Below, in pieces: positions 1 to 17,471 of a DNA stretch of 17,516 nt. The stretch is from positions 1-17,516 of the IMG/VR virus record IMGVR_UViG_3300045988_103075; one strand, given 5' to 3'. The stretch is from a virus. Taxonomy: Duplodnaviria; Heunggongvirae; Uroviricota; Caudoviricetes. Each line of letters opens with the position of its first letter. Position 1 is the stretch's first letter. The position numbers and the translations under genes are program-made. Under the pieces are notes generated by a model. The model had not been told where the DNA came from. It ran no database searches and worked only from the letters and a program-made list of their open reading frames with translations.

Positions 1-73
1 TGGATACGGTGGAAATGACGCGGGTGCCGTCGTTAATCTCCAGCACCTGCACGCCATGATGATAGTCACTCAT
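1..73 (-). CDS. FI: Tail sheath protein FI, N-terminal 24 codons only (gene continues beyond window start)
   Basis: Reverse complement of 1..73 translates MSDYHHGVQVLEINDGTRVISTVS, matching the N-terminus of P2 tail sheath FI as I recall it. ATG at 73..71 is preceded by GGAG. Not in the ORF track because it is truncated. Confidence 0.8.
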   Translation of the reverse strand, partial: MSDYHHGVQVLEINDGTRVISTVS

Positions 74-160
74 CCGTTTAACTCCGTGGTTAATGGGTGC
101 AACTATTTTCTGTTGTGCAGAGCATGAGACGCTATTTGACCTGGCTGGTCAGTGGATGAA

Positions 161-197
161 ACAACAGATAAAGAAAAGGCGGGCAATTCGCCCGCCT
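161..197 (-). terminator. Rho-independent terminator downstream of the 403..996 cargo gene
   Basis: Perfect inverted repeat GGCGGGC (178..184) / GCCCGCC (190..196) with 5-nt loop AATTC. On the minus strand it is followed by UUUCUUUAUCUG (complement of 161..176). Confidence 0.55.
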
Positions 198-402
198 GTC
201 CTGATTTGAACTCACTCATTTTCCGACTGACAATTTACATAGCCCAAAAGTTATCAAATCTGACGGTCTGCTTTGAACAAGAAGCGGACATTTGCCTGTC
301 AGGGTATATACCGCTCTGCGGTTATTATCCAGAATCAATAATTCATCTGAGTTGGATTACATATAAAACATAGTTACCCCATGAATAACCATTAGCAGAT
401 TA

Positions 403-996
403 TCAATTATGTAAATCTTTTGTTTTATGTTCTTTGGTGTGTTGTGACAACAAATGGCTATAGCGTTTAAGCAAAATATTAGAAAGATTAAGCTCATTCA
501 TGAAGTGTTCTTCTAATAAGTAACCATCAATATCAACTTTAATATCATTACCACTTTTCATCTTCTGTAACGTAGATTTTACACGCTCCAGCAGGATGCT
601 TTGCTCATGGTAATAGTCCATAAGAAGAGTAACATCCTCTTTATCAAGCTTACTTAATTCGCTGAAGTAGGATTTAAACACTTTATCAGTCTGGTTTAAT
701 GCAATCTGTAAGCGAGGCCCCCCTAATGATTTGACATTAATGGCAAAAGGCTCGCCAACAAAATGCTCCGAATTTTCGTCAAAGCCAATATATCTCGTTT
801 TATCAAGAAAAGTGAGAGCGCGATGGTTATTAGCGATTTCATATGCAAACATTGTTCTGATACTGTCCCTCTCAGCCTCCATAGTTATATCATCACGATG
901 ATTTGTATAAAATATATTTCCAACAAAGAGAACCATAGCAAGAATCACTGAACTTGCCTCCCAGTTAATATTTTTTAATCGTCGCTTAGTAAACAT
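403..996 (-). CDS. Hypothetical protein, 197 aa, AT-rich cargo gene with a predicted N-terminal membrane anchor, in the Z/fun slot between G and FI
   Basis: Intact ORF. AAGGTG lies 6 nt upstream of the ATG on the minus strand. Hydrophobic segment SSVILAMVLFVGNIFY follows a basic N-terminus (KRRLK). Sampled lines count about 30% GC against mid-to-upper 50s% in flanking phage genes. No family recognised. Confidence 0.75.
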   Translation of the reverse strand: MFTKRRLKNINWEASSVILAMVLFVGNIFYTNHRDDITMEAERDSIRTMFAYEIANNHRALTFLDKTRYIGFDENSEHFVGEPFAINVKSLGGPRLQIALNQTDKVFKSYFSELSKLDKEDVTLLMDYYHEQSILLERVKSTLQKMKSGNDIKVDIDGYLLEEHFMNELNLSNILLKRYSHLLSQHTKEHKTKDLHN

Positions 997-1217
997 ACCG
1001 CACCTTAATTATCAAAAATATTCCTTCAGTGTTATCTGGTTAGCCTAAACCAAGTCATTAAAGTCTGCAGGATATCATATACATAAAATGTATTGATTAG
1101 AATTTGCACTAATAAAATAATGCTTTACTAAAATCTACTCCAGACACAGAGCGGCCTGTCAGATTAGGCTTTACTCTGTGCCATAGATATGTTTGCTCAC
1201 TCCAGAGATCATACAAC

Positions 1218-1745
1218 TTATTGCGGCATTTCCGGCCATTCAGGATTTGCAGGATCCACACGACTGACCAGAACGCTGTAACGCTCCCATGCATCCAGTC
1301 GGCTACGCTCCTCATCTGTTGCCATGTTCAGTCTGACCGCGCGCTCCAGCGGCAAAATCACGGATTCAGCATCTGCAAGAAGTCTGGCTTTCCGGTTTTC
1401 TGCCTGCTGCAGCAATTCCTCTGCCGTATAAATGCGTTTAATCACTTTGCCGTCCTTAAACATCCAGTTCCCTGAAATGTCCGCCCGTCGGTTAGCAGTA
1501 ATATCCGCCACTTCAACAACACTTAATCCATCCGGTCTGATAGCTGTCACATCCTTTTCCACATAGCGGATGATATTATCTTTGTCGTACGCTATTTTTA
1601 GCGTGTCATCAGCAAAATACTTTTGTTCTTCGTACCAGTTCTTACCATCTTCTGAAAAAAACCAGACAACATCAAAGTCTTTTGTCAATTGATATTGTTC
1701 AACCGTTTTTGGATTACCCGCCGTAATATTTTTTAAATGCTGCAT
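1218..1745 (-). CDS. G: Tail fiber assembly chaperone (P2 gpG-like), 175 aa
   Basis: Protein [14 protein letters not shown]...[13 protein letters not shown] resembles P2 gpG as recalled, same length, sits immediately downstream of H. Confidence 0.9.
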
Positions 1746-1748
1746 AAA

Positions 1749-4508
1749 TTATACCTGCGCCACGTTATACCATGTCCCGTTAATGTATTTCTGAACCGGT
1801 CTGTAATATACACCACCAATGTTATCGGCAGAGTTTGAGCCGGTATCCTGAACAATAATGCCGGAATATACACACCCGGACGGTGCCTGATGTGTCCATG
1901 TCATGCCATTGTTCGCAGGTTTGTATGTGGCAGCACCACCAAGCCGGATATCCCGGACATAGCGGGAATCAAAGTTACCGTAATCCGAGGGATTAACACG
2001 CCCCGTAATATTTATGGTTTTATTACTTTGAATACTTCCCGAGACAAAGCGCATAACATGGACGCTATTAGCATAAACATCCAGATTACCATCACCATTT
2101 TGTTTAAAGCCCGTGTCATTATCACCCAAAACAATCGAATTACCGCCAAGAGCACTGGATGTTCCTATACCCAGAGCACCATTCAATTGACCACCAGATA
2201 ACGGCAGTGCACCGACATCTCCCGCTGTAGGTTTTCGCGTTGTGGTATAAAACTCAGACCAGTCAGCCTCGAATCCGTAACCGTCACGAGCAGAACGATA
2301 AAAAATACCGCCGTTCTTATAATTAACGCGGAACTGGGCGGCGGGACAACTTCCTTCACCGATATTAAAATGAAGAATTAACGTTGATGCCCCACCAGTA
2401 GTTGCGTTATAGGCTCCGCTACTCCAGTTCCACCCAACGGCTTTATCATTCGCAACGGTGTCTCCTGTTTTTCCTGAAGCAAATGCACCAATATTTTTCG
2501 GCGTCAGGTTAATATCTGATGTTCCATCAAACGAAACGTTATTAATTTTACGGGCTGTTTTCAGCTTTGTTGCTGTCGCCGCATTGCCGGACAGTTCACC
2601 AGAAAGGCCAGCACTGAATGTCTGTTTCGCGCCCCATGTCTGGGCTTCGTCAATGATTGGTACTCGTCTTGCTGTGATCGTGCGGCTTCCCGGATTTCCT
2701 GAAATACGCACCATAAAAAATCGGTAGTTCGCTTTACTTACAGTGCTGCGCCATACATGCATTGAGCGCCCCGTACCGGAATCATCACTCGGACCAACTG
2801 CGATGTTTATCAGGTTGCCATCAATGACGCCCCAGTCCATACCGTCGGGAATATTGGTCATATTATCCAGCCTAACGGTTATCAGACTGCCCGGCACAAA
2901 ATCGTAGGTCTGCCAGTCCAGGCTGGTGAGCTTTGCCACAGCACCGCCGATACCCAGATTCAGGGGAAGTGAATACGAGGTGTAGACTTCCCGCCATTCG
3001 CTCCATGAGCTGCCGGTAAAGACGCGCTCAAAGGTGCGGCCTTTAAGGGTTGTACCTGTTCCGGCAGTTGTATAACGCTGCCATACATTAACACCATCAA
3101 ACCGCCTCAACACTTCCAGAATGCCGAGTACAGTCACGCCGTTTCCGTCCAGTACTGGACCGTTGGTCGCTTTACCTGTAACGCTGTAAATACCTGGTGA
3201 GGTTACATCATTCAAATCACCTTCGTAATAACGACTCTCTGACTGATGACCGACTCTTAACCACGGTTCCCACTGCGGATTTGATGCATCCCAGCTTGCC
3301 GCAAGGCAGCGGACATACATATTTCCACGGCGAGTGGTATAACGTTGCGTTCTTCCATAATTTCCGCCTTCGAGGATCTCAAGCATCCCCTGAGCAAAGC
3401 CGCCTTCCTCTGGATAATTGCGTTCATATGAAGCTATAGCCGAGCTACTGTTACGCCATAAACCAAGATGTTCGGCGGCTCCAAGCGTATTCAGGTCTAT
3501 AGTCGTACTCAAAGGGCGGGTAGCTGATTGAGTGTGACGCCATATGCCCCACGGACCATCAGAGCCATTCCACTTATTGGCGAGTCTGCGTATGTATACA
3601 TTGCCGTCTCTCGTGGTGAAGCGTTGCGTACCTGCAAAATTGCCGGCAGCAAAAACCTCAAGCACACCGACAGCATTATCTTCCGGGAAATTTTTCTCCA
3701 GTGTTGCGTTAGTTGAGGTAGTTTTAGACCAGATTCCCAGATAAGCCTTAACGGGACCAAATGTATTCAGATCAGCATCAAGCGGCATTTCGCCATTGTT
3801 TTTCATAAACGTCAGGCTGGTAACGCCAACATTGTCCAGAAAAGCGTCCTTATCTGGAATATCGCCACCGTTCTGGTCTTTCTGCAGACGTTTCTCAGCA
3901 TTGTCATAGGCTGCTTTTACTGCCTTTGGCGTTGCAGCCTGCTTTTCACTGGTGCTGTTTGTTGCACTGCTTAACTGAGTAAAACCTTTTTCTGTCAGCG
4001 TGGCGTCAGGATGGCGGCGGGACTGCTCATGCTCTGCGATTTTGTCATCGACGTAATCCTGCGTCGCCATCACTGTGCTGGCATCAATACTCAGCTCAAC
4101 GGACGCCACGTTGCTGAGAATAATAACCATGCGGCAGGTCTGCGCACGTCCGGAGCCTTCAGCCAGTTCTGGCTTATAGCTTTCTGCCATGTTGGATACC
4201 GCAATCAGTGTTCCGGCATCGTCATACAGACCAAGCTCACGCATCCAGAAGCCGCCCACTTCTGGCGGAACAACCAGTTCAGCCACGATATAGTTTTTAT
4301 TCTTGTTATCCACACTGACTTTATTCAGTGCATGACGCCAGACTTCATGCACCAGTTTCGTCTGACCGGCATCCGGCACCGGCAATTGGCCATTACCGTC
4401 ACCCACAGCCATTGCAGACAGGTTTACTTTTTTCCCGCCGGGAACAGTGGCGGCTGCCAGCTTCGCGGCTCCGGCAGTAGTGATAACGGTTTTAAATTTC
4501 GTGCTCAT
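1749..4508 (-). CDS. H: Tail fiber protein (P2 gpH-like), 919 aa, conserved N-terminus with a long divergent repeat-containing C-terminal region
   Basis: N-terminus MSTKFKTVITTAGAAKLAAA... matches the P2 gpH N-terminal baseplate-attachment region as recalled. The gene is followed by G. Confidence 0.9.
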   Translation of the reverse strand: MSTKFKTVITTAGAAKLAAATVPGGKKVNLSAMAVGDGNGQLPVPDAGQTKLVHEVWRHALNKVSVDNKNKNYIVAELVVPPEVGGFWMRELGLYDDAGTLIAVSNMAESYKPELAEGSGRAQTCRMVIILSNVASVELSIDASTVMATQDYVDDKIAEHEQSRRHPDATLTEKGFTQLSSATNSTSEKQAATPKAVKAAYDNAEKRLQKDQNGGDIPDKDAFLDNVGVTSLTFMKNNGEMPLDADLNTFGPVKAYLGIWSKTTSTNATLEKNFPEDNAVGVLEVFAAGNFAGTQRFTTRDGNVYIRRLANKWNGSDGPWGIWRHTQSATRPLSTTIDLNTLGAAEHLGLWRNSSSAIASYERNYPEEGGFAQGMLEILEGGNYGRTQRYTTRRGNMYVRCLAASWDASNPQWEPWLRVGHQSESRYYEGDLNDVTSPGIYSVTGKATNGPVLDGNGVTVLGILEVLRRFDGVNVWQRYTTAGTGTTLKGRTFERVFTGSSWSEWREVYTSYSLPLNLGIGGAVAKLTSLDWQTYDFVPGSLITVRLDNMTNIPDGMDWGVIDGNLINIAVGPSDDSGTGRSMHVWRSTVSKANYRFFMVRISGNPGSRTITARRVPIIDEAQTWGAKQTFSAGLSGELSGNAATATKLKTARKINNVSFDGTSDINLTPKNIGAFASGKTGDTVANDKAVGWNWSSGAYNATTGGASTLILHFNIGEGSCPAAQFRVNYKNGGIFYRSARDGYGFEADWSEFYTTTRKPTAGDVGALPLSGGQLNGALGIGTSSALGGNSIVLGDNDTGFKQNGDGNLDVYANSVHVMRFVSGSIQSNKTINITGRVNPSDYGNFDSRYVRDIRLGGAATYKPANNGMTWTHQAPSGCVYSGIIVQDTGSNSADNIGGVYYRPVQKYINGTWYNVAQV

Positions 4509-6934: not shown

Positions 6935-6980
6935 ATGACAATAATGGGGAACATATGCTCGAAAAACTATTGCAACCCGT

Positions 6981-6998
6981 TGTATCATTTTCGGCACA
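6981..6998. promoter_or_regulatory. Perfect TGT-N12-ACA dyad, candidate Ogr/Delta-type late-activator site in the V upstream region
   Basis: TGT (6981..6983), 12 nt, ACA (6996..6998). This is the dyad described for P2/P4 late promoters centred near -55. Geometry is imperfect: the centre is only about 55 nt from the V start codon. Confidence 0.35.
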
Positions 6999-7017
6999 AC
7001 CAAGAAGGAGCCGAAGC

Positions 7018-7761
7018 ATGGATAAATATCAAATCTGGGAAAAACAAAAAGACACCATCGCCCATAAAGAATATTTAAAAATTTCCGACACCAATTTACT
7101 TGGACATATACACATTGCCAATTATGAGGTGATTCAAAGTGAATTAAGCAAATTCAACTCTCCTGAAATTGTATTCCACTACTCACTTAATAGAAATGAA
7201 TTAAAAAAACAGCACATAAATATATCAAGACATTTTCTCAACTATATCTCCTCAGCATTATCATTTAGAGATTCAACGCGTAATCTACATAAAATCAATG
7301 TATTAAATATTGATGATATTACCAATAAATCCAGAGAAATCATCAATGAAGAATTTTTAAAAAATCCAATCATAAAATTAATGGAAGATTTAAGAAACAT
7401 CCTAACCCATCAAAAAATGATCTCCCCATTAATATCATCATTTATGCACCTCCAGAAAAAAATAAACATACACGGATTTGCATTTAAGATTGAAACCATA
7501 CTGGAGAATGACCGGCTTTCTGGTAAATCAAAAGAATACCTGAAGTCAACAGAACAAAAAAATTTATTCATCTTGCCGATAATAGAGGAATACCAATACA
7601 CAACTCTTAAATACCAGCACTGGCTTTTAGCTTGTATCTACAATGCTCATCAAAACACATATCCAGAATATTGGGAAGCAAGAAAAAACATAATGGACGT
7701 CTGGGGTGGAGATATCCAACTAATACCTGAAGAGAGTACCCTCACTTATTTGACCAGATAA
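7018..7761 (+). CDS. Hypothetical protein, 247 aa, AT-rich cargo gene between V and S on the opposite strand, with a HEPN-like R-N-x3-H motif
   Basis: ATG at 7018 is preceded by AAGGAG (7005..7010) with a 7-nt spacer. A sampled line counts about 27% GC. Motif RNILTH at codons 126..131 (7393..7410). Stop TAA at 7759..7761. No family recognised. Confidence 0.75.
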   Translation: MDKYQIWEKQKDTIAHKEYLKISDTNLLGHIHIANYEVIQSELSKFNSPEIVFHYSLNRNELKKQHINISRHFLNYISSALSFRDSTRNLHKINVLNIDDITNKSREIINEEFLKNPIIKLMEDLRNILTHQKMISPLISSFMHLQKKINIHGFAFKIETILENDRLSGKSKEYLKSTEQKNLFILPIIEEYQYTTLKYQHWLLACIYNAHQNTYPEYWEARKNIMDVWGGDIQLIPEESTLTYLTR

Positions 7762-7794
7762 CAATCTAATTAGCTCACAAACATAAGACACCTT

Positions 7795-7826
7795 GGCCAC
7801 GATATTTTATCGTGGCCTTATATGAT
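7795..7826 (+). terminator. Putative intrinsic terminator after the 7018..7761 cargo gene
   Basis: 9-bp inverted repeat GGCCACGAT (7795..7803) / ATCGTGGCC (7809..7817) with 5-nt loop, followed by TTATATGAT. The U-tract is weak. Confidence 0.4.
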
Positions 7827-7974
7827 AAAGCGACTACCTTCGATGAGTCCTTATAACTCTCATCCACTGCACATTTTCAAGTTACAATTAAAGTTCATTT
7901 AGTTGAAATATAAAAAGGATGCCGCAAGAGGATAATGGCGATATTTCATCAATAAGGCGCAAGAAATGGCACAA

Positions 7975-14345: not shown

Positions 14346-16118
14346 ATGACCATCACCACAGACACCACTCTTTTACACGACCCGCGTCGTCAGGCGGCGC
14401 TGCTGTACTGGCAGGGGTTTTCCGTGCCGCAGATTGCCGCCATGTTGCAGATGAAACGCCCGACGGTGCAGAGCTGGAAACAGCGCGACGGCTGGGACAG
14501 CGTTGCCCCCATCAGCCGTGTCGAAATGAGCCTGGAAGCGCGGCTGACCCAGCTCATCATCAAACCGCAGAAAACCGGCGGTGACTTCAAGGAAATTGAC
14601 CTGCTGGGACGCCAGATTGAACGACTGGCACGGGTAAACCGCTACAGCCAGACCGGCAACGAGGCAGACCTTAATCCGAACGTCGCTAACCGCAACAAAG
14701 GCGGGCGTCGCAAACCGAAAAAGAATTTTTTCAGTGACGAAGCCATCGAAAAGCTGGAGCAGATTTTCTTTGAGCAGTCTTTCGACTATCAGTTGCACTG
14801 GTATCGCGCCGGGCTTGAGCACCGCATCCGCGATATCCTGAAATCCCGCCAGATTGGCGCAACGTTTTATTTTTCCCGCGAGGCGCTGCTGCGCGCCCTG
14901 AAAACCGGTCATAACCAGATTTTTCTGTCGGCCAGTAAAACGCAGGCGTATGTGTTCCGCGAATACATCATCGCCTTTGCCCGTCTGGTGGACGTTGACC
15001 TTACCGGTGACCCGATTGTCCTGGGCAATAACGGCGCAAAACTGATTTTTCTCGGCACCAACTCCAACACCGCGCAGAGCCATAACGGCGACCTGTACGT
15101 CGATGAGATTTTCTGGATCCCGAATTTTCAGGTACTGCGTAAGGTGGCATCAGGTATGGCCTCACAGAGTCACCTGCGTTCGACCTATTTCTCCACCCCG
15201 TCCACGCTGGCGCACGACGCCTACCCGTTCTGGTCGGGTGAACTGTTCAACCGGGGACGTGCCAGCGCCGCCGAACGTGTGGAAATCGACGTCAGTCATA
15301 ACGCCCTTGCCAGCGGGCTTCTCTGTGCGGACGGCCAGTGGCGGCAGATTGTCACCATTGAGGACGCCCTGAAAGGCGGCTGCACGCTGTTCGACATTGA
15401 GCAACTCAAACGCGAAAACAGCGCCGACGATTTTAAAAACCTGTTCATGTGTGAATTTGTTGACGACAAGGCGTCGGTGTTCCCGTTCGAGGAGCTGCAA
15501 CGCTGCATGGTCGACACGCTGGAAGAATGGGAAGACTATGCGCCGTTTGCCGCCAATCCGTTCGGCTCACGCCCGGTCTGGATTGGTTACGACCCGTCAC
15601 ACCGTGGCGACAGCGCCGGATGCGTGGTACTGGCACCGCCGATGGTTGCCGGTGGCAAATTCAGAATACTTGAGCGTCACCAGTGGAAAGGCATGGACTT
15701 TGCCACCCAGGCTGAATCCATCCGCAAACTCACCGAAAAATACAACGTCGAATACATCGGTATTGATGCCACCGGCCTCGGTGTCGGCGTGTTCCAGCTC
15801 GTGCGCTCGTTCTATCCTGCCGCGCGCGACATCCGCTACACGCCGGAAATGAAAACCGCAATGGTGCTCAAGGCAAAAGACGTTATCCGCCGTGGCTGTC
15901 TGGAATATGACGTCAGCGCCACCGACATCACCAGCTCGTTTATGGCTATCCGCAAGACCATGACCAGCAGCGGACGCAGCGCCACTTATGAGGCCAGCCG
16001 CAGCGAGGAAGCCAGCCACGCCGACCTCGCCTGGGCGACCATGCACGCCCTGTTAAATGAGCCACTCACCGCCGGTATCAGCACCCCGCTGACATCCACC
16101 ATTCTGGAGTTTTACTGA
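14346..16118 (+). CDS. P: Terminase ATPase (large) subunit (P2 gpP-like), 590 aa
   Basis: Track ORF trimmed to the ATG at 14346 (MTITTDTTLLHDPRRQAALLYWQGFSVPQIA...), preceded by GGCGAGG. Length matches P2 gpP as recalled. Divergent from O. Confidence 0.9.
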   Translation: MTITTDTTLLHDPRRQAALLYWQGFSVPQIAAMLQMKRPTVQSWKQRDGWDSVAPISRVEMSLEARLTQLIIKPQKTGGDFKEIDLLGRQIERLARVNRYSQTGNEADLNPNVANRNKGGRRKPKKNFFSDEAIEKLEQIFFEQSFDYQLHWYRAGLEHRIRDILKSRQIGATFYFSREALLRALKTGHNQIFLSASKTQAYVFREYIIAFARLVDVDLTGDPIVLGNNGAKLIFLGTNSNTAQSHNGDLYVDEIFWIPNFQVLRKVASGMASQSHLRSTYFSTPSTLAHDAYPFWSGELFNRGRASAAERVEIDVSHNALASGLLCADGQWRQIVTIEDALKGGCTLFDIEQLKRENSADDFKNLFMCEFVDDKASVFPFEELQRCMVDTLEEWEDYAPFAANPFGSRPVWIGYDPSHRGDSAGCVVLAPPMVAGGKFRILERHQWKGMDFATQAESIRKLTEKYNVEYIGIDATGLGVGVFQLVRSFYPAARDIRYTPEMKTAMVLKAKDVIRRGCLEYDVSATDITSSFMAIRKTMTSSGRSATYEASRSEEASHADLAWATMHALLNEPLTAGISTPLTSTILEFY

Positions 16119-17152
16119 TGAGCAAGAAAAAAGGGAAAACACCGCAACCTGCGGCAAAAACAATGACCGCCAGCGCCCCGAAAATGGAGGCATTCACCTT
16201 TGGTGAGCCGGTGCCGGTACTCGACCGCCGTGACATTCTGGATTACGTCGAGTGCATCAGTAACGGCAGATGGTATGAGCCACCGGTCAGCTTTACCGGT
16301 CTGGCAAAAAGCCTGCGTGCTGCCGTGCATCACAGCTCACCGATTTACGTCAAACGTAATATTCTGGCTTCAACGTTTATCCCGCACCCGTGGCTTTCCC
16401 AGCAGGATTTCAGCCGCTTTGTGCTGGATTTTCTGGTGTTCGGTAATGCGTTTCTGGAAAAGCGTTACAGCACCACCGGTAAGGTCATCAGACTGGAAAC
16501 CTCACCGGCAAAATATACCCGCCGTGGCGTGGAGGAGGATGTTTACTGGTGGGTGCCGTCCTTCAACGAGCCGACAGCCTTCGCGCCCGGCTCCGTGTTT
16601 CACCTGCTGGAGCCTGATATTAATCAGGAGCTGTACGGCCTGCCGGAATATCTCAGCGCCCTTAACTCTGCCTGGCTGAATGAGTCGGCCACGCTGTTCC
16701 GCCGCAAGTATTACGAAAACGGCGCACATGCCGGATACATCATGTACGTCACCGATGCCGTGCAGGACCGCAACGATATCGAAATGCTTCGCGAAAACAT
16801 GGTTAAGTCGAAAGGCCGCAATAACTTTAAAAATCTGTTTCTCTATGCCCCGCAGGGGAAAGCCGACGGCATTAAAATTATCCCCCTCAGTGAAGTGGCG
16901 ACGAAGGACGATTTTTTTAATATCAAAAAAGCCAGCGCCGCTGACCTGCTGGACGCACACCGCATCCCCTTTCAGTTGATGGGTGGCAAGCCGGAGAACG
17001 TCGGGTCACTGGGTGATATTGAGAAAGTGGCAAAGGTCTTTGTCCGCAATGAGCTAATCCCGTTACAGGACAGGATTCGGGAAATAAACGGCTGGCTCGG
17101 CCAGGAGGTCATCCGCTTTAAAAACTACTCACTGGACACTGACAACGGCTGA
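16118..17152 (+). CDS. Q: Portal protein (P2 gpQ-like), 344 aa
   Basis: Protein MSKKKGKTPQPAAKTMTA... Start overlaps the P stop (TGATG). Length matches P2 gpQ as recalled. Confidence 0.9.
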   Translation: MSKKKGKTPQPAAKTMTASAPKMEAFTFGEPVPVLDRRDILDYVECISNGRWYEPPVSFTGLAKSLRAAVHHSSPIYVKRNILASTFIPHPWLSQQDFSRFVLDFLVFGNAFLEKRYSTTGKVIRLETSPAKYTRRGVEEDVYWWVPSFNEPTAFAPGSVFHLLEPDINQELYGLPEYLSALNSAWLNESATLFRRKYYENGAHAGYIMYVTDAVQDRNDIEMLRENMVKSKGRNNFKNLFLYAPQGKADGIKIIPLSEVATKDDFFNIKKASAADLLDAHRIPFQLMGGKPENVGSLGDIEKVAKVFVRNELIPLQDRIREINGWLGQEVIRFKNYSLDTDNG

Positions 17153-17157
17153 ACATC

Positions 17158-17180
17158 GCCGCCTGCGGGCGGCTTTTTTA
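17158..17180 (+). terminator. Rho-independent terminator after Q
   Basis: GCCGCC (17158..17163), loop TGCG, GGCGGC (17168..17173), followed by TTTTTT (17174..17179). Confidence 0.6.
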
Positions 17181-17322
17181 CACCCCCGTCATCACGCCCT
17201 CACACGCTCATCACCGCACAAAAAATCCCGCAGACACACCAACGCCCCAGCAGGCCAAGTAAACGCCTTCACGACGCGCTCAGACGCTGAAAAAATAAAA
17301 TCAGCACCACCGCCAGCGCGCA

Positions 17323-17341
17323 GTGCTTTCCCCGCCTCGCC
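17323..17341. other. P2-type cos, the 19-nt cohesive-end sequence
   Basis: Reverse complement of 17323..17341 is GGCGAGGCGGGGAAAGCAC, which I recall as the P2 cohesive end. It lies next to Q as in the P2 map. Identity is from memory. Confidence 0.7.
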
Positions 17342-17471
17342 CGCCCGCTTCATGGGGCGGTTTTAATGCAGTTGCATGAGTACGTTGAATCCTCGCTAGC
17401 TGTGACGTAAAGCAATGAGGACGCATAACTTTGACACATGCAAAACCATGCACCTGATACATTCATAGTTA

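Follow-up and report, generated by a model that had tools for sequence, protein, structure and literature searches.

A one-gene cargo unit from the variable Z slot of a P2-like phage, encoding a predicted inner-membrane protein and candidate phage-exclusion factor

Between the tail fibre assembly gene G and the tail sheath gene FI of a P2-like phage, the segment at 289..1144 (minus strand) is best explained as a self-contained, horizontally acquired cargo unit of one gene occupying the variable Z slot. All positions are those of the window, the whole 17,516-nucleotide stretch of DNA that was analysed. The cargo gene (403..996, minus strand) starts with ATG and encodes a protein of 197 aa with a basic N-terminal tail, one transmembrane (TM) helix at approximately residues 12–31, and a four-helix bundle predicted to extend to about residue 180. 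The genomic setting is already known, whereas the protein family within it is without prior characterisation. Exclusion of incoming phages at the cell envelope, in the style of superinfection exclusion, is tentatively put forward as a candidate function. The gene is common and compact, at less than 0.9 kb including its signals, and none of its detectable relatives has a known function.

The flanks of the unit are P2 backbone. The first 24 codons of FI are present at 1..73 (minus strand), where the gene is cut by the window edge; this stretch, which has 85% identity to the P2 pF/FI region, encodes MSDYHHGVQVLEINDGTRVISTVS when read from 73 to 1 and is labelled as tail sheath protein in E. coli genomes. 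The late promoter region pF, with an Ogr-type activator site and the transcription start, is placed at approximately 95..170 (minus strand) by P2 homology alone: window positions 1–288 align by blastn with P2 17433–17724, within which the P2 annotation gives the activator site at 17555–17583 and the start site at 17626–17628. Upstream of pF is an intrinsic terminator (177..197, minus strand) whose 9 bp stem includes 7 G-C pairs and gives way to a T-rich tail. Its folding energy of -20.1 kcal/mol (z = -5.4) agrees with the strong terminator described in the initial annotation, and it lies inside the P2-homologous block and is therefore part of the conserved backbone. On the other side, G (1218..1745, minus strand) matches Caudo_TAP (E 2e-34) and PHROG 136 and has 77% nucleotide identity to P2 G. 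The location of the ORF between G and FI, as first proposed, is thus established from both sides.

The insert has no counterpart in reference P2. Its blastn boundaries are at 288/289 and 1144/1145, and between conserved flanks it stands where P2 has positions 15347–17432, containing fun(Z). The GC content is 0.341 for the insert and 0.348 for the ORF, compared to 0.526 for the whole window; the AT-rich island of the initial annotation is therefore real, but its value of about 30% GC was slightly low. In its deviant composition, its place between conserved genes, and its absence from close relatives, the unit resembles a moron, or lysogenic conversion cargo.

Fun(Z) of P2 (NP_046777) is the product of a lysogenic conversion gene that blocks T5 when cloned and is associated with FUdR sensitivity. 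It shares with the window gene the G-FI slot, with the same conserved flanks and palindromes, and both genes are AT-rich, non-essential cargo. However, Fun(Z) is 528 aa long rather than 197 aa, and fun(Z) is on the P2 minus strand with G and FI on the plus strand, whereas the window ORF is on the same strand as G and FI. Comparison of the two proteins gave a BLASTP E value of 2.1 and an hhalign profile probability of 0.13%, and P2 is absent from the tblastn matches to phage records described below. The possibility that the gene is a Z/fun homologue was rejected on these values and on the differences in length and strand, which settles as other cargo a question that the first reading of the sequence had left between the two. 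Fun(Z) itself has no Pfam match.

The literature already recognises the G-FI slot as a defence hotspot, the second one in P2-like phages (PMC9519451; PMC13586616). Three validated systems came from it (PMC9519451) and 16% of P2 defence systems sit in it (PMC13586616). Further occupants found here include a restriction endonuclease, an HNH endonuclease, and a DUF3800 protein. The Z slot is thus a proven source of anti-phage genes, most of its occupants being unnamed. P2 hotspots also carry non-defence cargo, such as the cytolethal distending toxin and partition genes (Rousset 2022); the survey in that study was confined to the A-Q hotspot. Location in a hotspot is therefore a weak argument for a defence function.

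The block is present at 95–100% identity in 203 of 5,426 complete E. coli genomes (3.7%), and is chromosomal every time. The pF/FI junction is present in 1,685 genomes, so that about one in eight genomes with a P2-type junction has the gene. The exact protein is encoded on 305 contigs, and some truncated copies exist. By tblastn against 50,697 phage records, the protein was detected in 13 P2-like phages, reference P2 not being among them. Beyond this slot, relatives are found in P4-like satellites after the primase gene, a site described as a minor defence hotspot of P4 (PMC13586616); at the end of a Salmonella prophage, adjoining a DNA methylase; in the tail module of a Pectobacterium siphoprophage, encoded on the opposite strand; in a Salmonella ICE; in a Dickeya island, beside SIR2 and DUF87 genes; and on an IncFII plasmid. 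No conserved neighbour gene accompanies the relatives across the satellite, prophage, ICE, island, and plasmid contexts. As the relatives in P4-like satellites, other prophages, the ICE, and the plasmid stand alone, the gene is an autonomous single-gene cargo. An Rhs/WHH toxin accompanied by SUKH immunity genes is found approximately 3.5 kb away from one Pantoea copy.

The family corresponds to PHROG 3829, of unknown function, and carries the NCBI name "lysogenic conversion protein". Approximately 30 family representatives were found among 1.84 billion proteins, all from Enterobacterales. Full-length identity between family members is 53–94%, and the architecture and full-length conservation persist down to 20–39% identity. 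PHROG matches were limited to three function-unknown families, with none to any PHROG annotated for superinfection exclusion. No family among the 5,027 models of PADLOC-DB 2.0 matched at E <= 1, and Pfam, NCBIfam, and PADLOC together returned nothing but a sub-threshold match to YydG (E 0.029). When all 30 members were searched against Pfam there were only scattered single matches, with E values above 0.002, and no member matched a catalytic or nucleotide-binding family. The PDB sequence profile search gave no match (best E 0.37). In fold comparisons de novo designed bundles scored highest, the fold matches being generic, and Foldseek found nothing at E <= 0.001 among viral models (BFVD); the best named viral match, at a TM-score of 0.34, comes from the P2-like Haemophilus phage HP1 and is itself uncharacterised. 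The protein is not among the novel systems tested in a 2026 NAR paper.

Palindromes are present at both edges of the slot. At the 3' edge is an R-type palindrome (266..289, minus strand), GTCCGCTT-CTTGTTCA-AAGCAGAC, with one mismatch, which folds weakly (-6.9 kcal/mol). The R element is also found 3' of the cargo in other P2-like slots, and 3' of the gene on the plasmid and in Pantoea. The L-type palindrome at the other edge (1133..1156, minus strand) is decayed, retaining the arm GGCCGCT but having AGTAGAT as its second arm instead of AGCGGAC. P2 homology stops within it, at 1145. Intact copies of L (GTCCGCTCTGTGCCAAGAGCGGAC) are found at the equivalent place in P2 and in other P2-like phages.

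Cargo units of the slot are bounded by conserved L and R palindromes, and cassette arrays with these elements occur elsewhere in Enterobacterales. In tandem arrays there is a regular composite junction, with the R and L palindromes 18 nt apart; in one array (L013) the 82-nt stretch spanning the junction folds into a long hairpin (-35.8 kcal/mol). Integron cassettes are likewise one-gene units delimited by imperfect palindromes, but the units described here are bounded on both sides. The sequence of the boundary palindromes is not known to be related to the core sites of attC. Neither an integron integrase nor any other integrase family was found among the genes annotated near the arrays. How defence cargo is swapped so fast at hotspots is an open question (PMC13586616), on which the boundary palindromes would bear if they are recombination sites. 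It is quite unlikely, taken as a whole, that the protein is the first of a new family of phage-exclusion proteins that are encoded by one gene and act at the envelope, and that it also travels as a palindrome-bounded cassette. On this reading L and R would be the sites of a putative exchange mechanism, moving defence genes among phages, plasmids, and chromosomal arrays.

The 197-aa reading of the gene is correct, because residues 10–16 (INWEASS) are invariant in the family despite synonymous codon changes and because the GTG at V17 is GTT in Pantoea. The 181-aa start at this GTG, given in some public annotations, was rejected on the same grounds. The ribosome-binding site AAGGTG claimed for the gene was found at 1006..1001 (minus strand), 4 nt before the ATG, in the block TTTTTGATAATTAAGGWG, which is conserved with the copies from other contexts. 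Further upstream is a conserved block (1066..1100, minus strand) that is a candidate promoter of the cargo gene, its best -10 candidate being TATGAT at 1079..1074; the sequence TCTAATyAATAyATTTTAyrTATATGATATyCT is common to the window and the Pantoea copies. A scan for the promoter consensus gave a single match, ATAACA-16-GATAAT at 1035..1008, but this was rejected as the main promoter as transcription would begin within the ribosome-binding site. No canonical terminator was found between G and the ORF. Terminator-like hairpins flank the gene in P4-like contexts, and all three Rfam matches in 1..1400 had E values above 0.4. It is probable that the cargo gene is transcribed in the lysogen from its own candidate promoter. 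Read-through from the late V operon is probable as well, since no canonical terminator separates G from the ORF, and the transcripts would end at the terminator at 197..177. The dN/dS ratio is approximately 0.14 against the Salmonella and Pantoea copies and, judged from these sequences, the family is under purifying selection.

A single hydrophobic segment is present in the protein, at residues 13–31 (Kyte-Doolittle 19-residue mean of 1.54), following a tail with 4 K/R residues; this agrees with the membrane anchor after a basic N-terminus that was described initially. No second hydrophobic segment was found by Kyte-Doolittle analysis of the 197 residues. The AlphaFold model has a pLDDT of 84 and a pTM of 0.72 when the alignment includes distant relatives, and a pLDDT of 62 with an alignment of the close family only. 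In the model the helix of residues 12–66 is unbroken, so that the TM helix runs directly into a four-helix bundle of approximately 150 residues, and the protein terminates about 15 residues past the bundle. Sequence and modelling together predict a bitopic protein of the inner membrane. A cleavable signal peptide was rejected as no small-x-small site is visible by eye after the hydrophobic stretch, and a lipoprotein was rejected because the protein has no cysteine. On the positive-inside rule alone, the tail would be cytoplasmic and the bundle periplasmic. The number of K/R residues on the N side is 2–8 across the family, and within the close family there is a modest charge bias, with 2–4 on the N side and 1–5 on the C side. 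The TM segment is the best conserved part of the protein (0.48 bits entropy), with an invariant polar residue, Asn27, and the small residues S16 and A20 within the helix. Such conservation points to a role in the membrane that depends on sequence.

If the protein does exclude phages at the envelope, the conserved TM helix would be the part that meets the injection apparatus of the phage or a component of the inner membrane, which the periplasmic bundle would recognise or block. Such exclusion would protect the host, and hence whichever mobile element carries the gene. In phage P2_AC1 the same slot is occupied by a copy with 94.9% identity. A lysogen of this phage was reported to be protective only against lambda and LF82_P8, and this protection was reproduced by a cloned TIR system from the other hotspot (Rousset 2022). 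The slot gene is thus not required to account for any of the protection seen, and no effect was visible on T4, T7, P1, 186, CLB_P2, or AL505_P2; the panel had no T5-like phages. Should an exclusion phenotype be positive, the gene would represent a very small membrane-level defence module, easily dissected as it consists of one helix and one bundle.

The protein may instead be a lysogenic conversion factor unrelated to phages, acting as an orphan immunity protein against a periplasm-acting bacteriocin or type VI effector, or altering envelope physiology or host colonisation. A helical domain in the periplasm with an inner-membrane anchor, as predicted here, would suit many immunity proteins just as well, and this reading is in keeping with the NCBI name of the family, with the toxin and SUKH immunity genes near the Pantoea copy, and with the non-defence cargo of P2 hotspots. 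It is considered rather unlikely, since no toxin gene is consistently linked to the family, no Pfam immunity family is matched, and anti-phage systems are enriched at the P2 slot as well as at the P4 primase-att site.

A single-gene abortive infection effector is also an unlikely explanation. Such a protein would oligomerise via the TM helix, through Asn27, S16, and A20, and permeabilise the inner membrane on sensing infection, killing the cell before the phage cycle is complete. In favour of it, conservation is greatest in the TM helix, which includes small residues and an invariant Asn, the gene is carried in a hotspot, and membrane proteins have been discussed as suicide effectors in defence systems of the same elements (PMC9122126). 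Yet there is no conserved adjacent gene for a sensor or partner, the protein has just one TM helix and matches no known pore or effector family, and there is no sign of toxicity, the gene being intact in the 203 complete E. coli genomes.

The orientation of the gene, the same as that of G and FI, and the probable inclusion of the gene in late transcripts through the lack of a canonical terminator after G, would also be consistent with an accessory late protein made by V-operon read-through, for example one that stops progeny from injecting into lysing or infected cells, or one that tunes lysis. This is improbable, given that the gene is missing from most P2-like phages (203 genomes against the 1,685 with the junction), that its place in reference P2 is taken by an unrelated gene of opposite orientation, and that the relatives in satellites, the ICE, and the plasmid are without such a late operon. 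That the ORF is spurious or decaying in AT-rich filler DNA, as its lack of matches in Pfam, PADLOC, NCBIfam, and PDB and the truncation of some copies could suggest, is refuted by the low dN/dS across genera, the architecture retained over the full length among distant members, the confident structure model, and the presence of a ribosome-binding site and terminator.

Envelope exclusion of phages remains the preferred, if tentative, reading. The superinfection exclusion proteins of temperate and lytic phages, such as lactococcal Sie2009, T4 Imm and Spackle, P22 SieA, and HK97 gp15, are small, phage-borne, single-gene products of the membrane or periplasm that lack enzymatic motifs. Those of the Sie2009 type are anchored by their N-terminus, while Spackle is small, helical, and periplasmic. 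The likeness of the window protein to these is one of kind only, as it has no match to a PHROG annotated as Sie and no significant fold match among viral models. The bundle also resembles the periplasmic ligand-binding domains 4HB_MCP and TarH of chemoreceptors and sensor kinases, but the second TM helix, HAMP, and signalling module of those proteins are all missing, none of the 30 members matches Pfam 4HB or TarH, and the resemblance is generic, as de novo designed bundles score higher. The protein differs from the PADLOC candidate systems as well, matching 0 of the 5,027 models. With the PD systems (Vassallo et al. 2022), which are validated defence systems of the same P2 hotspot, it has in common the slot and the design of compact cargo with native signals.

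The cargo gene is a real feature and was described correctly in the initial annotation. The window in which it lies is the half of a P2-like phage (Peduovirus) that holds the late genes. Peduovirus P2_2H1 is 93% covered by the window at 98.7% identity, and window bases 1-2000 are identical to it. The minus-strand order is H (1749..4508), the tail fibre assembly gene G (1218..1745; Caudo_TAP E 2e-34; PHROG 136), the cargo ORF (403..996; 197 aa, ATG start) and the first 24 codons of FI (73..1); the ORF call and the matches of its flanking genes confirm the position between G and FI. The ORF is AT-rich as had been claimed, with a GC content of 0.348 against 0.526 for the window, although this is about 35% rather than the earlier estimate of about 30%. 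Its own AAGGTG ribosome-binding site is present 4 nt upstream of the ATG, and the strong terminator at 177..197 has a 9-bp stem with 7 G-C pairs (-20.1 kcal/mol, z = -5.4). A second AT-rich island (6950-7960, GC 0.27-0.38), probably another cargo slot, separates baseplate gene V from the following tail gene, which is the position of P2 orf30. Its 246-aa ORF (7021..7761, plus strand, opposite to the late genes) has a full-length match to PHROG 12680, whose function is unknown, and none in Pfam or PADLOC.

The cargo protein has a full-length match to PHROG 3829 (function unknown; E 6e-137) and no match in Pfam, PADLOC or NCBIfam. It is carried by 13 sequenced P2-like coliphages at 95–100% identity. 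A search of 5.8 billion proteins found relatives in 38 clusters, all from the Enterobacterales (Escherichia, Salmonella, Pantoea, Kosakonia, Pluralibacter and Enterobacter). Several clusters carry the NCBI name 'lysogenic conversion protein'; no functional study behind this name was found in the literature, and it may simply reflect where the gene lies. When 1.84 billion representatives were searched exhaustively with a HMMER profile, no more than 30 proteins reached E <= 0.001; around a dozen of them are full-length relatives with 20–39% identity and an unchanged layout. In some public phage records the gene is annotated as a 181-aa product from an internal GTG start (LR595870.1 15480-16025, locus L002 4049-4594; OV192280.1 17235-17780, locus L062 2549-3094), so that the product lacks the conserved basic tail and begins a few residues into the membrane helix. 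This GTG (V17) start is wrong: residues 10–16 do not vary although their codons change synonymously, and Pantoea has GTT at V17. Conservation supports the ATG start and a length of 197 aa.

AlphaFold produced a poor model from the close family alone (pLDDT 62), and a pLDDT of 84.1 and pTM of 0.72 when distant relatives were added. The latter model has a continuous helix (residues 12–66), a loop (67–91), two short helices (92–100 and 105–116) and two long helices (119–148 and 151–178), and the protein is thus predicted to be a transmembrane helix running straight into an up-down four-helix bundle. Of the soluble domain without recognised motifs that had been described after the helix, the lack of a motif was borne out by the absence of a family match, and the domain itself is modelled as this bundle, reaching residue 178. 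A basic N-terminus followed by one hydrophobic helix is likewise found, the only hydrophobic segment being residues 13–31 and the tail having 2–8 K/R across the family. Remote-homology and structure searches found no relative of known function, with no significant match to PDB sequences or to viral structure models. The sole named weak fold match among the viral models was P51700, an uncharacterised 23-kDa protein whose gene lies between int and cI in HP1, a P2-like phage of Haemophilus; with a probability of 0.91 but a TM-score of 0.34 this is not significant, and P51700 could be an analogous cargo protein.

Relatives of the cargo gene are always alone, with no conserved neighbour. In Pantoea ananatis and Kosakonia they follow the primase gene of P4-like satellites. 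In Salmonella one lies at the end of a prophage, with a Lom/tail-fibre block on one side and a DNA methylase with DUF4928 on the other. Pantoea also has one in a small AlpA-type element, and an IncFII plasmid carries a truncated copy adjoining an IS91-family element. Relatives with 24% identity are in a Pectobacterium prophage (opposite strand, between distal-tail and probable tape-measure genes, the latter a 726-aa ORF without a family match), in a Salmonella ICE with TraG, TraU and TraC, and in a Dickeya island beside SIR2, DUF87, ArdC and CcdAB genes. This spread over unrelated mobile elements shows that the gene works on its own, and suggests an advantage to any element or host that has it. 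The satellite homologues (L005 4827-5000 and L015 4401-5000) have 62–63% identity. The site after the P4 primase has been described as one of the minor defence hotspots of P4 (PMC13586616), and a 2026 study reports that defence genes are almost never common to P2 phages and P4 satellites. If defensive, the cargo gene would be a family-level exception to this.

Location in a defence hotspot and, for relatives, in a second, satellite hotspot, autonomy across mobile elements, the lack of an enzymatic motif and the predicted envelope location with a sequence-specific membrane helix together best fit an exclusion function. Tentatively, and at somewhat less than an even chance, the cargo protein would act at the envelope to keep out incoming phages, much as superinfection-exclusion proteins do; the relatives in the independent P4-satellite hotspot are counted as pointing this way. 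The main contrary evidence comes from P2_AC1, which has a 94.9% identical copy in the same slot. Its lysogen was protected only against lambda and LF82_P8, from a panel, without T5, of lambda, T4, P1, 186, CLB_P2, LF82_P8, AL505_P2 and T7, and this protection is accounted for by the TIR system of the other hotspot.

With one hydrophobic segment and a basic tail, the protein is predicted by the positive-inside rule to have its tail in the cytoplasm and its bundle in the periplasm, the charge bias being modest in the close family. A conversion function not directed at phages, such as orphan immunity to a periplasm-acting toxin, is unlikely. Conservation is highest in the transmembrane segment (mean entropy 0.48 bits), with N11, W12, E13, A14, S16, V17, A20, M21, F24 and N27 invariant in the close family. 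Such conservation exceeds the need of an anchor and suggests a specific contact within the membrane. That the protein is a self-oligomerising abortive-infection effector is likewise unlikely. No canonical terminator was found between G and the ORF, therefore late V-operon transcripts probably read through the cargo gene and stop at 197..177, just upstream of pF, where the stem is followed by a T-rich tail. An accessory role late in the phage's own cycle is improbable. There are two candidate sites for a promoter of its own. An upstream block conserved with the Pantoea copies holds TATGAT (1079..1074) and is the best candidate for what a lysogenic-conversion gene would need; the other, 1035..1008, was reported by a consensus promoter scan and would put the transcription start inside the ribosome-binding site. 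A spurious ORF is refuted by selection, since the dN/dS of about 0.14 against copies from other genera places the protein under purifying selection.

The edges of the slot are marked by two palindromes of about 24 nt with a common stem and different loops. The L type, GTCCGCT-CTGTGCCAAG-AGCGGAC, is 60–85 nt after G, and the R type, GTCCGCT-yCTCGCTCAA-AGCrGAC, is about 190 nt before FI. P2 has an L type at 15335-15358 and a degenerate R type; the R type of the window (266..289) has one mismatch and its L type (1156..1133) is decayed, with P2 homology ending inside it. A repeat finder identified a 19-nt imperfect inverted repeat (257-275 / 1147-1165, 79% complementary) that corresponds to the outer arms of the two palindromes and flanking AATCTGAC. 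This repeat and a 9-nt perfect direct repeat, GCCTGTCAG (294-302 / 1154-1162), bracket the insert. Both palindromes flank the gene on the IncFII plasmid, outside P2-like tail modules, and partly decayed copies are present in the AlpA-type element of Pantoea and in a short-read contig closely similar to it. Two-unit slots read L..R-18 nt-L..R; of 9 junctions, 7 have an R-to-L gap of exactly 18 nt, and units measured from L to R are 0.6–4.9 kb long (n=38). An exact match to the L pattern was found in 45 viral contigs. In roughly three quarters of them a G homologue is beside the palindrome, usually with FI beyond (G-L-cargo-R-FI); some are arrays without G or FI nearby. It also occurs in 16 species-representative genomes, all Enterobacterales but one metagenome bin, and none of these sites is next to G or FI. 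Next to a Shango SngC gene, a Trabulsiella array contains two unknown genes together with AbiV and an Mrr-like endonuclease, and a Pantoea array contains ordinary-looking genes. Further sites were seen in the comparison loci L001 (1336-1359), L009 (5784-5807, 6606-6629), L013 (3020-3085), L051 (2245-5310) and L067 (953-6004). The intact L hairpin folds at -18.5 kcal/mol, and an 82-nt stretch over the R-18-L junction of L013 at -35.8 kcal/mol. Recombination sites, REP-like repeats and RNA elements are candidate explanations. The title of Nilsson et al. 2004 refers to site-specific recombination in P2-like phages, and the palindromes may already be described there. IS110-family elements often target palindromic repeats; the distant relatives of the Salmonella ICE (L003 10117-11355) and Dickeya island (L004 6640-7662) each have an IS110-family transposase no more than about 2 kb away, and reversed copies of the palindromes are present at both loci.

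The slot itself is known. It is the second defence hotspot of P2-like phages, with three validated systems and fun (PMC9519451), holds 16% of their defence systems (PMC13586616) and is also described in the iLund4u preprint. The P2-type pF/FI junction is present in 1,685 of 5,426 complete E. coli genomes and the cargo in 203, chromosomal every time. A survey of the G-FI junction in other prophages agreed with a known variable hotspot with several different occupants, the four inspected being a restriction endonuclease with a hypothetical gene, a hypothetical protein of 433 aa, an HNH endonuclease encoded on the opposite strand, and a hypothetical gene with a DUF3800 protein. G and the 72 nt past it (window 1145-1803) align to P2 14689-15346 with 77% identity, and the pF region with the start of FI (window 1-288) aligns to P2 17433-17724 with 85% identity, placing the gene in the Z/fun slot as proposed; the 856 bases of 289..1144 stand in place of 2,086 fun(Z)-bearing bases of P2. 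Whether it is a Fun(Z) homologue had been left open, and alignment rejects this (BLASTP E 2.1; profile comparison probability 0.13%). The proteins being unrelated, the cargo gene is a different, uncharacterised occupant of the same, already known hotspot, encoding 197 aa where P2 encodes the 528-aa Fun(Z) on the opposite strand.
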